This document shows, piece by piece, positions 50,803 through 57,925 of a stretch of 64,000 bases of DNA. The position numbers and the translations under genes are program-made. How positions within the stretch are numbered: position 1 is the first letter of the stretch; the number at the start of each line of letters is the position of its first letter. Source of the DNA: Candidatus Heimdallarchaeum endolithica (lineage in GTDB: Archaea; Asgardarchaeota; Heimdallarchaeia; Heimdallarchaeales; Heimdallarchaeaceae). The stretch lies in assembly GCA_021513715.1 (NCBI GenBank), contig CP084167.1, positions 544,001 through 608,000 of the forward strand, read 5' to 3'. Under the pieces are notes generated by a model. It saw only the letters and a program-made list of their open reading frames with translations. It was not told the origin of the DNA and ran no database searches.

Positions 50803-51366
50803 CTATCCCTTTTTCATTTCTAATTGGTTTACCAACCATGTAAACGCTTCATTTACTCCAGTTCCGTTTATTGCGCTACAATCAAAAACTGCAAAAGTTC
50901 TATCTTTCATTTCTAAATGAAGTCCTAAAAGTTGAATTAACATTGGTGCTTGAATGGATTCTGGTAAATCTTGTTTATTTGCTATTATTAGGCAAGGTAT
51001 TTTTTCTAGGTACGGGTTGTTAAACACATGTATTTTTAATATGTCTCTTGCTTCTGGCAATCGTTCTATATCTGCTGAATCTATTACAAAGATTACTGCT
51101 GAACTCCCTGGGTAGTGTACCTCCCATAGAAAACGGAATTGTTTTTGTCCTGCTACATCTACTATTGTTATATTCCAATCTGCAAAATTAACTGTATCTA
51201 TATTTTGCCCTATTGTTGGTACAGTATCTTTGAACACACCTGTGTTCACATATTTCATTAATGTTGTTTTTCCCGCTGAATCTAAGCCTAAAACGATGAT
51301 TTTAGCCTTTTTTTCTGATTTAAGTTTTTTCCTTAACCAATAAGAAAACGATAGTTTTGAGCTCAT
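50803..51366 (-). CDS. Arf/Arl-family small GTPase
   Basis: LGLDSAGKTT, PTIG, DVAGQKQFRFLW, VIFVIDSAD, ANKQD and CSAINGTGV.EAF.WL; N-terminal basic/aromatic helix. Confidence 0.93.
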   Translation of the reverse strand: MSSKLSFSYWLRKKLKSEKKAKIIVLGLDSAGKTTLMKYVNTGVFKDTVPTIGQNIDTVNFADWNITIVDVAGQKQFRFLWEVHYPGSSAVIFVIDSADIERLPEARDILKIHVFNNPYLEKIPCLIIANKQDLPESIQAPMLIQLLGLHLEMKDRTFAVFDCSAINGTGVNEAFTWLVNQLEMKKG

Positions 51367-51460
51367 TGTATATTATTTCTTAATTCTAATTACTCCTTAA
51401 TAAAAATTGTCTAAGTTCGTAAACAATAATAATTAAAAAAAATGAAAAATTAAAGAAGAA

Positions 51461-53653
51461 TTATTGATGCTTTTTTACTAGTTTTATTAATTCTGGAAAA
51501 TCAATTTCCAATTCTTTTAATTTTTCCACTGTAGGAACACCGTTTTCTGTCCATCCTCTTCTTTCATATACTGCTTTTTTCAGTTGTTCATATCTTTCTT
51601 CTCTGTACTTTCTTATTGCAGCCATCTTTTCTTCTATTGTCATGTTTGTTGGGTCTACTCCCACTTTTTCTTTCAGTTCTTTAAGATAATACTTATCTTC
51701 TCTAGATAGATATTCTTCTTTTGTTACTGGTCCCATAGCTCTAAAGGGTATACTATCTAGTTCTTTGTATGTTACACCCTCTGGAACGAATAATAGGTTC
51801 ATCACTCTTTGGAAATTGTACATTCTTTCACTCATTTTTATGTATTCTCTAGAATCAATGTTTTTTCCTGTTACACTATTGAAGTATTGAACATAGTTTA
51901 GCACATGTTCTGGAACTTTTGCGGGATCAGCTATATCTTCAGGAGCTCTCATTCCATATTTTTCTATTTTTCCTTCAGCGAATTCTTTGTTATCTTCTGG
52001 AACAATATCATTCCAAGGCAATTTGCAAAGACCTAGTAATCCAAAGGAAGTTCTCCACATTGGGAACCACCATAGAGCTTCAGCTTTTTTTTCGAAAGTG
52101 GGCATGAAATTATGAACCATATCTAAAAAGATTAACCATGCTTCATCATGTTGTGGTCCTTTTAATGTTAATCCGTATCCTCCTTGCTGAGCAAGTGACT
52201 CTTTAGTCATGTATTCACTAAATTCTAAACCTTTTGATTCCATTCCTATATCATCTAGAAGTTTAGCTTCTTCTTCGCTTAAGTTGAATTCTTTCTTGAA
52301 GTATTCTTTCATGTATCGTATTCCCTTTCCAAATATCTTACCGAATCCTTCACCTTTTGCTATTTGATGAATTACTTCCATTGCTCCTTCGAAATTACCC
52401 CAAGTAAGATCTATTCCTCCTGTTCTTTCCTTGTTTAATATTCCATATTCATAGCATTCCATACAGAAAGCCATACCTGTTCCAACGCTAATAGTATCTA
52501 AACCGTAGTTATCACAGTAAAAGTTTACTTCTATAACATTATCTGGATCCCACATATACCAATTTGAACCTACTCCTGCAGCCGTCTCATATTCTGGGCC
52601 ATCAACTGTTACTTTTTGACCTTTATATGGTCCAGTCTTGCACTCAAAGCTGCTAACACCATGTGTACAACCCACAGTACATCCTTTCCAACATGGGTCT
52701 GGACCTTTTTCAAACCTCTTGTAATAAGCTTCTTTACCTATTTTCTCTGATTGTGGGTCTGAACCAAATCTGAAGTTCTTTGTTGGCAAAAGGTCAAAAT
52801 CATTCATTATTGGAATTAAGTGTATAGTTCCAATATTTCTCATGTCATTTTGTTTAGGATCGAGTTCAGTAATTTCCTTACTGTGTCTTTTTGCTACTTC
52901 TTTTTCTGCCTCAGGGTTCGCAGGATTGTTAGATTTGACATTAACATTACTTTTTCTTACAACTAAAGCTTTTATTTTCTTATTTCTTAATACTGTCCCT
53001 GTTCCTCCTCTTCCAGCTTGCTTATAACGTACATATCCTCTTTTACCGTCAAACCAGCTGAAATTCAAGCAACCCATGTAAGCATTTTCAGCTCCTGGCC
53101 CAGCAGAAACGACAGAAATATTTCTTTTATCGTTTTCATCTTTAGCATATTTCTCAGTAAGCAATCTTCCTAACTGAAAAGTTTCTGAAGGTAAATCCTC
53201 TGCTTCTTCAATAAGTATTTTGCCATTATCTCCATCAATAAAGATGAGTAACTCTTTATCTGACTTACCTTGAATAGCCATTGCATCAAAACCTGCAAAT
53301 TTGAGAAAAGGACCAAAATATCCTCCAACGTTTGAATCAATTAAAATATTAGTTAATGGAGAGATAGCTGTTACAATGCTTTTACCTGAACCAGGGTAGT
53401 TAGTTGTTCCACCTAATGGTCCAGAAGCTATACAAAGAACATTTTCTGGGTCATCCCATTTTACTTTTTTGTCTTTAGGAATATATTTCCAAGTCAGCCA
53501 AAGATCAAATCCTCTTCCACCAATGAATTTTTCTTTCATCTCCTCTGTAACATCTTCTATTTTTGCTTCCAAAGTTTCTAAATTAATATACAATGTTTTG
53601 TTAGCGTATCCTTTTTCAATTACTGGAACTTCATAATTTATCTCTTTAATCAT
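51461..53653 (-). CDS. aor: Tungsten-containing aldehyde:ferredoxin oxidoreductase family protein
   Basis: FIGGRG, SPLT, SNVGGYFG, AGRGG.G, CxxCxxxC, DGPEYET, CDNYGLDTIS, GLCK and RGW..NGVP motifs. Confidence 0.92.
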   Translation of the reverse strand: MIKEINYEVPVIEKGYANKTLYINLETLEAKIEDVTEEMKEKFIGGRGFDLWLTWKYIPKDKKVKWDDPENVLCIASGPLGGTTNYPGSGKSIVTAISPLTNILIDSNVGGYFGPFLKFAGFDAMAIQGKSDKELLIFIDGDNGKILIEEAEDLPSETFQLGRLLTEKYAKDENDKRNISVVSAGPGAENAYMGCLNFSWFDGKRGYVRYKQAGRGGTGTVLRNKKIKALVVRKSNVNVKSNNPANPEAEKEVAKRHSKEITELDPKQNDMRNIGTIHLIPIMNDFDLLPTKNFRFGSDPQSEKIGKEAYYKRFEKGPDPCWKGCTVGCTHGVSSFECKTGPYKGQKVTVDGPEYETAAGVGSNWYMWDPDNVIEVNFYCDNYGLDTISVGTGMAFCMECYEYGILNKERTGGIDLTWGNFEGAMEVIHQIAKGEGFGKIFGKGIRYMKEYFKKEFNLSEEEAKLLDDIGMESKGLEFSEYMTKESLAQQGGYGLTLKGPQHDEAWLIFLDMVHNFMPTFEKKAEALWWFPMWRTSFGLLGLCKLPWNDIVPEDNKEFAEGKIEKYGMRAPEDIADPAKVPEHVLNYVQYFNSVTGKNIDSREYIKMSERMYNFQRVMNLLFVPEGVTYKELDSIPFRAMGPVTKEEYLSREDKYYLKELKEKVGVDPTNMTIEEKMAAIRKYREERYEQLKKAVYERRGWTENGVPTVEKLKELEIDFPELIKLVKKHQ

Positions 53654-54140
53654 AATAATACACCCGAGAATATCGTTATAAATACGAAAAAAATCAACTA
53701 TATAATTTTAACTCTATCTCGTCAACTATTAAAGAAAAACTTACTTTTTATATCTTCTAAAATAAAAAAAGGTTATTTACAAAGAATCATCATTTCTAAA
53801 TTTTTTAGCATTTTTAGGTTCATATCCAACTTCAAATGATTGAATCTCAAGAGTATATCCATCAGGGTCTTTGAAGAAAATGTTGTAAATGTGATATTTT
53901 TCGTACATACTAGGCTCTTTAGTTAGATTGACTCCCTTCTTTTTAAGGAATTCTGCCCAAAGATTAACTTCATTTGATGGTTTACTTTTTCCGAAATACG
54001 AGATTATAGGAAAAGGGGAAAAAAGAAGAGAAGAAATGAAAGAAAAAGAAGAAGGAAGGAGAGAAGAGAAAAACGGAGGACAGAGGAGGGAAGATGAGGG
54101 GTTTAAATAGGGAAAAAAAGTAAGAAGAAATGAAAAAAAA

Positions 54141-55385
54141 ATGAGTAGAAAAGTGTGGCGAACTGAGGAAATATGGGTGAAAGAATCGATCACTCTAAAA
54201 CAGTTGGCACACCAGGTAAAAAACTTGTATAATCAAGCAAATTACATTATTAAGTATCAGTTAAGAAAAAGTAAATATTTCACGAGAGAGTTCGAACTGA
54301 TGAATATTTTGAGATACCATCCGACTTACACAGCTTTACCGGGTCATACGGCACAACAGACGATAAAGTTTCTATGTTTAGCGTGGAAAGGGTATTTTAG
54401 GTCTTTAGAAGAATGGAAAAAGGAACCAGAAAAGTTTAACGGTAAACCCCGTCCTCCAAAATATAAGAAGAAAGATGGACTTGCTATAATCTATTTTACT
54501 AACTCTCAAGTGAAAATTAAAGAAGAAAAAGGTGAAGGTAAGTTCTTTATCTCTTTTCCTAAACGTGTAGGACTAAAGATAGTTACAAGACTTGACCCTT
54601 CAACAAAAGTGAAGTTTGCCCGGCTCATACCTATGGGAACGAAATTTAAATTAGAGATAGTTTACGAGAAAGAGATAGAAGAACGAAAAGAAGAGCGACC
54701 AGCAGAAAGAGTTTTAGCTCTTGATCTGGGAGTGAATAACTTAGTCGCAGGTTTAACCAGTATTCCTGGTGAAAAAGGTTTTCTGATAAATGGTAGACCC
54801 ATTAAAGCTGTTAATCAGTGGTTTAACAAACGTAGAGCAAAGTTACAGTCAGACTACGCTCGACAAGGATTAAACACCTGGGAAAGAAAAATGCTCGCCC
54901 TCCAGTTAGAACGAATGTTTAAAATAGCTGACTACTTCCATAAAGCAAGTAGAAAAATAGTAGACTACTGTTTAGAAAAAAACATTGATACAATAGTTAT
55001 AGGTTACAACTCCCGATGGAAACAGGAAGTGAATATGGGAAAGAAAAATAATCAAACTTTTGTTTTTATCCCCTTCCAATCCCTCATTGACAAAATCACT
55101 TACAAAGCAGAAGAAAAAGGAATAAAAGTTCTTCCTACCGAAGAGTCCTACACCTCTGTCTGCAGTTTCTTGGATAATGAAGAGATAGATTTTCACCTCC
55201 ATTATGTTGGCAAAAGAACTCACCGTGGACTGTTCATCAGTTCCCAAGGATTAAGAATTAATGCTGATATCAACTCTGCAGGTAATATCGGTCGCAAAGT
55301 ATTCCCTACGTTATTCTCCGTCGAGTCTAACTACGGGATAGTCTGGGGTGCAGTGGTTCACCCCGTCTGTTGGAAAATAAGTTAG
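54141..55385 (+). CDS. tnpB: RNA-guided endonuclease TnpB (IS200/IS605/IS607-type)
   Basis: KNLYNQANY, AQQTIK, PRPPKY, RuvC-I ALDLGVNN, DYFHKASR, RuvC-II EESYTS and RuvC-III INADINSAGNI; the catalytic D-E-D triad is intact. Confidence 0.95.
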   Translation: MSRKVWRTEEIWVKESITLKQLAHQVKNLYNQANYIIKYQLRKSKYFTREFELMNILRYHPTYTALPGHTAQQTIKFLCLAWKGYFRSLEEWKKEPEKFNGKPRPPKYKKKDGLAIIYFTNSQVKIKEEKGEGKFFISFPKRVGLKIVTRLDPSTKVKFARLIPMGTKFKLEIVYEKEIEERKEERPAERVLALDLGVNNLVAGLTSIPGEKGFLINGRPIKAVNQWFNKRRAKLQSDYARQGLNTWERKMLALQLERMFKIADYFHKASRKIVDYCLEKNIDTIVIGYNSRWKQEVNMGKKNNQTFVFIPFQSLIDKITYKAEEKGIKVLPTEESYTSVCSFLDNEEIDFHLHYVGKRTHRGLFISSQGLRINADINSAGNIGRKVFPTLFSVESNYGIVWGAVVHPVCWKIS

Positions 55386-55447
55386 TTAAGTTAGTTCAGC
55401 TCTTACGCTGTTCTTTCTTTTTTTCCACCGACTAAACTTACTCCTCC

Positions 55448-55472
55448 TTCCGATTTTGATTAAAAATCGGAA
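55448..55472. repeat. Subterminal 10-bp perfect hairpin at the element right end
   Basis: ttccgatttt-gatta-aaaatcggaa. Confidence 0.8.
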
Positions 55473-55763
55473 TTTGGAAAAAGGTAAACCATGTTTCAAC
55501 AACTAAAGTTAAGCATGTTTTCTCTGGAGTTAAGAACTCTTCACTTGTTTCACAAAATCCCCAGTAACCATTTGGACCTACATTGTAAATCACACAGTTT
55601 GCTTGTTTTAGAGCTATATTGAATTTTAACAATGTTGAATAAAAATTTCTATTTTCTTCCAAATTTTTTGTTTTTAAAAAGGTTATTGGATAAATAATTT
55701 TAGGAAGCATAAACTAGTTTACATATTCTTCTCTTAAAAATTTCTTTATAGAAAGTGCTCTTT

Positions 55764-56876
55764 TTAAGAGCCAATAGTTAATTTTCTTTCATCAACAAAT
55801 GGGAAGTAGGATGGAATATATTTAATTGCATCATCAAATACAGAAGCATCTCCACTGAAAGCAATAATTTGATTTTTAAATGTTGAATTAAACCTGTTTA
55901 CAAAGTGTTCTAAAGAAATCTCAAAGATTTTTACTCTTTTATCTACTATTAGCACACCAATGATATCTTCTTTTTCCTTTGTTATCATAACTCTATCTTT
56001 CAGTTCTACGTATTTTAGTAATTGATAGGCAGAATTTGTTACTTCTGATATAAAATGAGCAAAAGCATTAATCATTCCTCCAATTAACAATCCTTCTGTT
56101 TCCTTCTTTGAATAATTTGAAGCAGAGAAAAGAGTTGTCCCATTTTTATTTATTATTAAAAAGTTAAAGATCTCAGCAGAAGTAAATAAGACAAATTTAG
56201 GGTCAATTAAATAGATAATCAATGTTACTCCTAGAGCTAATCCAAAGCCTATTGCTCCATATGTATCTAAAGGAACTATATGCTCCAGGAATTCTAAAAT
56301 AGCAACAATAAATGCAATAAAGAAACTTATCCACAATAGTAGTGTATGATATTGAGCTTTATTGCCCACACTTTTAACAAATGTAAATGTTATTCCTACT
56401 AAACATACTGAAACAACGTATAATTGAAAAAAATCTAAAAACCAGATATATAAACAATCATTTTTTGTTGGGATTTTCAAATTTGTAGAAACAGGAGGTA
56501 AGTCAAATATAACATTTATTAAATAAGTCACAAATAGGGAAAAAATAATAATGTAACCTGCTTGAACTATTCTGCGGTCCCAAGCGTTGAAATTACTGAA
56601 GTGAATCAAGATAAAAAGAAAAACTATTGCATAAGGAATAATCTCTAAAGAAGGTAAATAGCTATTTTCCAAAAAACCCCATTGGTAACCTGCTAATCGA
56701 GAGAAAAAGAAAAAGAACTCTACTATACTTTGTAAAATAGCAAAAATTAAAGCAGCTATGAGATTTTTATATCCTTGTACTTTGTTAATAGAACTTCGAT
56801 ATATGAATACACTTAACATTATCAGGATTATAATTATTTGTATTAATTTGAATATAGCTTGACTCAGAGTTTCCAA
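55764..56876 (-). CDS. 7-TM membrane protein with C-terminal longin-like domain
   Basis: Seven hydrophobic segments, then EIFNFLIINKNGTTLF...LIGGMINAFAHFISEVT...YFPF. Confidence 0.75.
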   Translation of the reverse strand: METLSQAIFKLIQIIIILIMLSVFIYRSSINKVQGYKNLIAALIFAILQSIVEFFFFFSRLAGYQWGFLENSYLPSLEIIPYAIVFLFILIHFSNFNAWDRRIVQAGYIIIFSLFVTYLINVIFDLPPVSTNLKIPTKNDCLYIWFLDFFQLYVVSVCLVGITFTFVKSVGNKAQYHTLLLWISFFIAFIVAILEFLEHIVPLDTYGAIGFGLALGVTLIIYLIDPKFVLFTSAEIFNFLIINKNGTTLFSASNYSKKETEGLLIGGMINAFAHFISEVTNSAYQLLKYVELKDRVMITKEKEDIIGVLIVDKRVKIFEISLEHFVNRFNSTFKNQIIAFSGDASVFDDAIKYIPSYFPFVDERKLTIGS

Positions 56877-57010
56877 CGTTTATCAAATAAAAAAAGATTT
56901 CTCTTATATTAAATTTATGTAGTAAATTCCAAATATTTCAAAAAACAAATAACAACAATTTCATATAAAAAAATATCAGTTTGTATTACTTAGTTATTTC
57001 TGAAGTAAAA

Positions 57011-57298
57011 CTATCCTCCTGCAACAAAGGGAAGAATAGATATTTCTGTTTGCTTATTTTCTATAAAATAGGTTGACAGTTCTTCATGATGAATTGTTCT
57101 GTTATTTATCATTATATTATAAAAAGAGTGTATTTTTTTTCCAGAAAATAGAAGATCATCTAATTCTGGATGCTTTATAACCAATTTTTCTATTGCTTCT
57201 AGAATGGTTGTCTTTTCACTATCTAATTCAACTACTACTTCTGCCTTATTTTCCAAAGCTGATCTTAATTGACCAAATAAGCGAAAAACAATTCTCAT
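57011..57298 (-). CDS. moaD: MoaD/ThiS/SAMP ubiquitin-like sulfur carrier
   Basis: 95 aa with FRLFGQLR at the N-terminus and ISILPFVAGG at the C-terminus. Confidence 0.85.
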   Translation of the reverse strand: MRIVFRLFGQLRSALENKAEVVVELDSEKTTILEAIEKLVIKHPELDDLLFSGKKIHSFYNIMINNRTIHHEELSTYFIENKQTEISILPFVAGG

Positions 57299-57364
57299 TC
57301 TTTATCCTCTTATAAGATAAATATAAATTTGAGAGATAAAATTGTTATGATTTGTCAAATTCTT

Positions 57365-57925
57365 TCAAATTGTATTAACTTCAAAGAATTTGACTATATT
57401 CTCAATTAGAGTAATAAAAGCTTTTTCTACATTTTCTCCAGTTTTTGCTGAAGTTTCTATATATGGAACTTCGAATCCACTCCAATTACTCAAACTTTTA
57501 GCATAATCTGCTGCATATTCATAAGGAACTGAATTGGGTGTTGAAGATCTAAGGTCTGATTTATTTCCTATCAATAACATTGGAACAATTTTGTTTTTGT
57601 TATTCTTTATTATCTCATGTATCCAATTTGGTAATAATTCATATGTTTCTGGTCTCGAAATGTCAAAAACTAATAAAGCACCTGAAGTTCCTCTATAATA
57701 AACTTCTCTAACTGCAGAAAAACGCTGTTGTCCAGCTAAGTCCCATATTTGTAGAGTGTATTCTATATTATTTAGTTGCATCTTCTTTACTGCAAAGTCT
57801 GCACCCACTGTCATGGCATAGCCAGATTCAAAAGTTTCTCCTAAATATCGACGTCTTAATGATGTTTTACCTACTGCTCCTTCACCAAGCAATGAAACTT
57901 TAAAGATTCTCTGCACTTTTTTCAT
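57365..57925 (-). CDS. Rab-like small GTPase
   Basis: GEGAVGKT, TVGADF, WDLAGQQRF, YYRGTSGALLVFDI, GNKSD and ETSAKTG. Confidence 0.95.
   Translation of the reverse strand: MKKVQRIFKVSLLGEGAVGKTSLRRRYLGETFESGYAMTVGADFAVKKMQLNNIEYTLQIWDLAGQQRFSAVREVYYRGTSGALLVFDISRPETYELLPNWIHEIIKNNKNKIVPMLLIGNKSDLRSSTPNSVPYEYAADYAKSLSNWSGFEVPYIETSAKTGENVEKAFITLIENIVKFFEVNTI

Follow-up and report, generated by a model that had tools for sequence, protein, structure and literature searches.

A tnpB-only element bounded by inverted ends and a repeated AT in Candidatus Heimdallarchaeum endolithica, possibly derived from the IS607 lineage

In the 64,000-nt window analyzed here (positions 544001-608000 of the single-contig, 3.33-Mb genome of Candidatus Heimdallarchaeum endolithica, a congener of Candidatus Heimdallarchaeum aukensis), a 1.5-kb insertion with tnpB as its only gene and inverted ends splits a glyoxalase-like gene. 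The initial annotation had read it as a TnpB riding a non-autonomous DDE-type element; the element is indeed real, well defined and non-autonomous, and its inverted ends are in register, but no DDE partner transposase with these ends was found in this genome, and DDE capture now seems the less likely reading. The reading we favor, with confidence about evenly balanced for and against, is that it is a non-autonomous, tnpB-only member of the IS607 (serine transposase) lineage, whose repeated AT would be the crossover core.

The junctions are sharply delimited. The dinucleotide AT occupies positions 53977-53978 on the left, where TTGAT is followed by GGTTTACTTTTTCC, and 55491-55492 on the right, where GGAAAAAGGTAAACC is followed by AT and then GTTTC, with the inverted ends between them, exactly as previously annotated. 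The interrupted glyoxalase/VOC gene lies on the minus strand, its 3' part at 53777..53978 (PF00903, E=2e-5) and its 5' part at 55493..55710 (orthologues in 5 relatives). Excising the insert together with one AT in silico restores a 139-aa frame in which LVVET is joined to SNEV, as had been proposed, and the suggested comparison of filled and empty sites is provided by the H. aukensis orthologue, which lacks the insertion, is collinear, aligns without gaps and reads CTGGT where the window has TTGAT. AT is present at both junctions in all five known copies of the element (see below) and, with this gap-free empty orthologue, this is the dinucleotide pattern of IS607 elements. The left AT (53977..53978) is thus repeated on the right (55491..55492), where it is conserved among the copies. 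Of the annotated apparent 2-bp AT duplication, the repetition of AT stands; a 2-bp duplication and a 2-bp recombination core leave the same pattern and are indistinguishable from sequence alone. The surroundings of the insertion (50803-57925 in the window) encode Arf-like and Rab-like GTPases, a tungsten AOR, a MoaD-like protein and a membrane protein.

The two ends match at 7/7 positions, then at 14/15 with one gap, and at 30/42 over a longer stretch, in agreement with the earlier description of close terminal matches that loosen inward; the score of the 25-nt end alignment was reached by 0/100,000 random AT-anchored pairs from the same genome. The left end (53979..54019, plus strand) is an inverted repeat of the right end, with the 14/15 core followed by looser similarity, and contains a T-run and a TTCCG-type motif. 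The right terminal inverted repeat (55476..55490, minus strand) is defined by the end alignment and conserved in the copies. A TATA-like box, TTTAAATA (54102..54109, plus strand), is preceded by a purine-rich leader and followed 32 nt later by tnpB; its putative promoter role is suggested by its sequence and by the sister elements, which have TTTAAATA or TTTATATA at the equivalent position. At the other extremity, the segment running into the right end (55340..55492, plus strand), which includes a hairpin at 55448-55472, is a predicted omegaRNA scaffold: it folds with z=-2.4 (4/200 shuffles were equally good) and is kept among the five copies exactly as far as the right AT. The adjoining right flank (55493..55512, plus strand), at which inter-copy conservation stops, is the guide predicted from the TnpB mechanism, and it matches the empty site directly after TTGAT. 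Conservation that ends at the right AT, combined with a better-than-shuffle fold, is what would be expected of a scaffold followed by a flank-derived guide. On the left, TTGAT (53974..53978, plus strand), the last bases of which form the AT, is the target motif and a predicted TAM, with nnGAT found at the 5 copies and at 15 sister sites.

The encoded TnpB is intact and 414 aa long (54141..55385, plus strand; NF040570 at E=2e-48, PF01385 and PF07282). Its RuvC residues comprise D195 (in DLG) and D376, with G288 at the canonical Glu position and an alternative Glu, E335; the RuvC-III motif reads NADIN, and the zinc finger, devoid of the C4 arrangement, is reduced to a single Cys, C341, six residues after E335. 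The combination of Gly for the RuvC-II Glu, a Glu ahead of the zinc-finger site and C341 identifies a rearranged active site of the RIIr/TnpB2 type, as judged from these residues, and activity has been published for TnpBs of this type (PMC10530073). The initial annotation had further suggested a prokaryotic parallel to Fanzor capture, which now appears weak. The Fanzor/pro-Fanzor signature couples DPG in RuvC-I with the alternative Glu (PMC10711439), and the query lacks DPG, having D195-L-G instead; by this motif it falls outside the pro-Fanzor clade and is no Fanzor precursor. No Fanzor was among its six PDB matches, all of them weak and named Cas12f/OrfB. Moreover, TnpBs inside TIR-bounded DDE elements have already been described in prokaryotes (PMC10691335).

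BLAST searches with both ends recovered no second copy in this genome, where the element is single. H. aukensis has four copies (~90% identity), the reading frames of which are all broken. The right end is CCAT in all five; the left flanks read TTGAT, TTGAT, CTGAT, AGGAT and ACGAT, the next bases on the right are G, G, G, A and A, and bases 2-7 of the left end differ among the copies. A 4-bp CATG duplication is ruled out for this family, which has GATG on the left and CATG or CATA on the right; its target is GAT, not CATG. Sister families at 52-57% identity likewise have nnGAT on the left and CAT on the right, and each of their ends carries an inward-facing TTCCG motif. Across the query clade the target preference lies on one side only: a G stands before the left AT at 20/20 distinct sites, and the mirror-image C follows the right AT at 0/21, counts in which the left ends were partly read by eye. 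Errors in automatic left-end assignments were put right by visual inspection or with motif anchors.

This combination of a fixed right end and a free right flank in the query clade would suit an ordinary IS200/IS605 (IS1341-type) element, inserted by a Y1 TnpA after nTGAT, ending in CCAT without duplication and with only incidentally inverted ends. TTGAT is the classic ISDra2 target, and this genome has one Y1 tnpA. We nonetheless consider this explanation highly improbable: the target tetramer varies (TGAT, GGAT, CGAT, AGAT), only GAT being invariant, the resident Y1 element has hairpin ends unrelated to those of the query, and H. aukensis, with its four copies, gave no Y1 match. A G also follows the right AT at 17/17 ends of a 391-bp mini-element described below, which single-strand insertion would not dictate, and the left ends of a second AT-ended clade are direct repeats and not hairpins. 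The initial annotation had kept a normal IS1341-like element ending in CCAT as an alternative, which the inverted ends, the non-strict tetramer and the unrelated resident Y1 ends make unlikely. It had also named two properties of further copies that would count against its DDE reading: the constant CCAT end, which all five have, and ends in common with a Y1 tnpA element, which were not found.

The second clade, whose TnpBs are 38-43% identical to the query and form a separate group in the TnpB tree, shows the same logic with other bases. Its elements have TTAT on the left, with T before AT at 24/24 sites, an invariant TCAT right end and a mixed right flank (G9 T7 A5 C3). Their ends carry a GTCAT motif in in-register inverted repeats with ~9 nt spacing, and the left ends are direct repeats without hairpins. 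Complementarity between the ends is 0.83 and 0.88 at positions 1-2, 0.44 at positions 3-8 and 0.88 at positions 9-15. In one AT-ended family the first inward bases differ, with G on the left and C on the right. Judged from these alignments, the invariant across families is AT, whereas the flank preference is one-sided and specific to the TnpB family.

We read AT as a crossover core because related TnpBs adjoin serine TnpAs, autonomous relatives with a GT core serve as a positive control, and IS607 anatomy has been published with a GG core (PMC6188088, PMC4058570, 10.1101/2023.11.20.567912). Among ~230 homologous TnpB loci, searched for transposase neighbors with IS607 serine TnpA and Y1 TnpA queries only, an IS607 serine TnpA lies immediately upstream of tnpB in 30 (TnpB identity 34-48%), Y1 TnpA stands beside just two distant homologues (30% identity), and neither adjoins the loci at 49% identity or above. 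In a TnpB tree built with FastTree, the query clade received 100% support and is surrounded by 24 serine-linked clusters, although the tree does not resolve the deep branches, including the placement of this clade among the serine-linked clades; the nearest Asgard outgroup likewise has a serine TnpA (L639, with a remnant at L647). The positive control comprises 11 autonomous IS607 elements from Heimdallarchaeaceae. Their left junction reads ACYGT and their right end closes with a second GT, beyond which the flank is random; the first bases of the left end vary, and the inverted repeat is subterminal. Serine-linked sisters from bacteria and viruses follow the same junction rules with a GT core. 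These autonomous GT-core elements (L363-L373) encode very long TnpBs of ~620-650 aa. Two Hodarchaeales loci (L663, L666) have a 245-aa ORF directly upstream of tnpB that matched neither the serine nor the Y1 transposase queries, and the DNA upstream of L642 and L660 is similar to theirs.

The premise that IS607 elements have neither TIRs nor TSDs, on which the initial annotation had relied, is overstated: imperfect inverted repeats close to the ends are on record, as is a dinucleotide shared by the two junctions that resembles a 2-bp TSD (PMC6188088; PMC4058570), and a mimivirus IS607 has been described with inverted terminal repeats (PMC10530073). The one-sided target fits the TGGG-type preference of CboTnpA (10.1101/2023.11.20.567912), the ~9-nt motif repeats of the second clade are like the repeated end motifs of IS1535 (PMC6188088), and the end motifs, TTCCG-type in the query and GTCAT in the second clade, are inverted between the two ends. 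On the IS607 reading, a serine recombinase supplied in trans would bind short repeated motifs that lie 9-28 bp in from each end and form inverted repeats, and would close the element into a circle containing a single AT. The AT of the circle would recombine with a target AT, preferably in nnGAT, leaving AT twice in the filled site and once in the empty site. TnpB with its omegaRNA (the right end plus ~20 nt of flank) would then cut empty alleles (TTGAT plus flank), favoring retention. The enzyme class, the circle, and the TAM and guide functions of this particular element are steps that we infer, the role of the TTGAT/nnGAT flank as a TAM and the 3' scaffold with its flank-derived guide being predictions.

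The element encodes no serine TnpA with an N-terminal HTH, which makes it at most a non-autonomous IS607 derivative; neither this genome nor that of H. aukensis, each a single contig, yielded an IS607 TnpA over the cut-off. The proposed search for an autonomous partner thus returned none with these ends in this genome, but did find serine TnpAs beside related TnpBs. Several observations weigh against the IS607 lineage: no AT-ended element with a TnpA was found, sister families have 99%-identical copies even though the genome lacks an IS607 TnpA over the cut-off, the inverted ends are terminal and in register where the IS607 repeats seen here are offset, the deep branches of the tree do not settle the lineage, end positions 1-2 are mostly complementary (0.83, 0.88), which is also DDE-compatible, and the mini-elements and three TnpB families have a palindromic CATG target. 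Absence of the TnpA alongside near-identical sister copies would mean that the enzyme was lost recently, was brought by a virus or plasmid, or is unrecognized; two end patterns had no match in viral contigs.

The element is part of a larger set. Through a shared leader and self-BLAST we located in this genome at least four further TnpB families, plus two mini-elements that lack genes, all with AT junctions and inverted ends, and catalogued ~100 AT-type ends (examples, in genome coordinates, at 1568710-1570561, 1464618-1466406, 3216736-3218223, 1123643-1124019 and 2657961-2658315; L357-L361). They include a 1.85-kb family with a 485-aa TnpB (~12 full copies), a 1.79-kb family with a 504-aa TnpB (2 copies, 99.2% identical), a 1.49-kb family with a 445-aa TnpB (3 copies), and mini-elements of 391 bp (~20 copies) and 360 bp (~7 copies), the latter having its right end in common with the 445-aa TnpB family. 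Sister families in this genome mostly lie in CATG. The ends of the 485-aa family (left ATGCTTTACTTTTT, right AAAAAGTAAATCAT) closely resemble those of the query, although the proteins are only ~26% identical, and similar ends recur with several unrelated TnpBs, lending support to the earlier idea of a shared vehicle with differing TnpB cargo. In one 485-aa sub-clade (L415-L423) the left region is longer, and a conserved hairpin (GGTTCCTCT...AGAGGAACC) precedes the gene. A 391-bp mini-element at 925506-925889 (L362) separates the left hairpin end from the start of the only Y1 tnpA, and probably disables that IS605. Both circular Heimdallarchaeum genomes have been described with 11 transposase families (PMC8813620), and a text search of that paper found no mention of TnpB.

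Such a shared end type, common to TnpB families only ~25% identical, is what a DDE-type non-autonomous element would explain, with true TIRs, a 2-bp AT duplication, several captured TnpBs and a transposase lost or unrecognized. The TIRs are in register and match beyond chance (14/15), most families keep the first G at either end, the mini-elements have palindromic CATG targets, and the one-sided targets could stem from TnpB selection. The usual DDE end has two parts, terminal bases and an inner binding site. DDE-linked TnpBs with TIRs and solo derivatives have been published (PMC10691335). Against this stand one family with G/C-mismatched termini and the resident enzymes: the DDE families of this genome (IS481-like, IS6-like and two DDE_Tnp_1 families) were rejected as partners, having other ends and longer TSDs, no DDE transposase sharing the query ends was found, and no IS630-type enzyme was detected in 5 genomes. 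The first 8 end bases of resident DDE elements match at 7-8 positions. We know of no prokaryotic IS with an AT TSD. On balance we regard a DDE origin as possible, though rather unlikely. The IS481-like family (30400-31413 in the genome) has TGT...ACA ends, 15-16-bp target duplications and ~25 copies.

None of the AT-ended elements examined contained a transposase, and paired-end and profile scans brought up none that did, the paired-end scan being insensitive and missing some known members. No IS110 transposase in this genome matched, and the single tyrosine recombinase lies outside AT ends. Another trans-acting enzyme, be it an aCas1 transposase, one of two host serine recombinases or an unrecognized protein, is a decidedly unlikely source of mobility. 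Giant aCas1-like genes do adjoin relatives of the 485-aa TnpB, and one of these loci (L477) ends in TTAGATCAT followed by G; however, neither this genome nor 30 genomes of the family yielded an aCas1, and four aCas1-TnpB loci showed no clear inverted ends. All three Pfam Cas1 loci of this genome score as canonical (one was checked, two lie beside CRISPR-like repeats), and a published GTTCACTCA motif, considered as a link between aCas1 and CTCAT ends, proved to mark the end of tnpB instead of that of the element. The two host serine recombinases (240-249 aa, C-terminal HTH-like parts; genome coordinates 316728-317450, L002, and 405348-406097, L003) have intact-looking active-site motifs and are conserved in 28/30 Heimdallarchaeaceae; they were not found in the other families searched, two of which have CAT-ended relatives; they are syntenic and never lie beside TnpB or AT ends. 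In Kari- and Thorarchaea (L473, L499, L517, L523, L525, L528), giant proteins of 1400-1900 aa with a weak N-terminal Cas1 match are encoded divergently from tnpB. Three loci in Kariarchaeaceae-like genomes (L478, L490, L491) have TAGATCAT plus ~20 nt directly before tnpB, with the same 20 nt again 70-230 bp upstream after TCAT; at L490 and L491 this stretch lies between tnpB and a giant aCas1-like gene. This arrangement looks like a guide against the element's own promoter region or a Cas1-made duplication.

Whichever enzyme is responsible, the data widen IS607-like junctions beyond GG, to AT here and GT in autonomous relatives, if the IS607 reading holds; they caution that TIRs with a 2-bp repeat are no proof of DDE on their own, and offer natural TAM predictions (nnGAT, TTAT, CAT) for compact nucleases. 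They also pose a puzzle: a circular Asgard genome with dozens of AT-ended elements, some recently copied, and no recognizable mobilizing enzyme. A bolder interpretation, which we think unlikely, is that Heimdallarchaeia have a self-standing system of elements with symmetric ends joined at AT, comprising several unrelated TnpBs and gene-less mini-elements; an unrecognized enzyme, possibly a host protein, would mobilize them in trans, and each TnpB family would set the bases left of AT to its own TAM (GAT, TTAT, CAT). If true, the closest relatives of eukaryotes would possess a new route of transposition.

Compared with known systems, the element is most readily set beside the IS607 family (IS607, IS1535, ISC1926, ISXfa1, CboIStron), with which it shares a dinucleotide at both junctions that occurs once in the empty site, short repeated motifs with an imperfect inverted repeat near the ends, a preference only upstream of the core, and related TnpBs that adjoin IS607 TnpA. 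It differs in its AT core, against the usual GG (the GT of autonomous relatives indicates that GG is not universal), in inverted repeats that are terminal and in register, whereas the IS607 repeats seen here are offset, and in the lack of tnpA from AT-ended copies. The DDE-associated TnpB branches DDE-1 to DDE-6 (PMC10691335) similarly have TnpB between inverted terminal repeats and solo copies moved in trans; unlike them, the query has no DDE gene with its ends, an AT junction instead of a family-typical TSD, and less constrained terminal bases. With the IS1341 group of IS200/IS605 (Y1, peel-and-paste) it has in common tnpB as the only gene, a TTGAT-like left target and a fixed right end; it departs from that group in its inverted ends, its non-strict target tetramer and the lack of ends shared with the resident Y1 element. 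Fanzors and pro-Fanzors resemble it in the alternative Glu and in inverted ends, as in mimivirus IS607 or Fanzors in eukaryotic TIR elements, but have DPG where the query has DLG. Finally, RuvC-II-rearranged TnpBs (RIIr-5, PMC10691335; TnpB2 such as TvTnpB, PMC10530073; Ealt with D-hydrophobic-G, PMC10711439) share Gly for Glu, the alternative Glu and NADIN with the query, whose zinc finger is down to one Cys and whose activity is a prediction.
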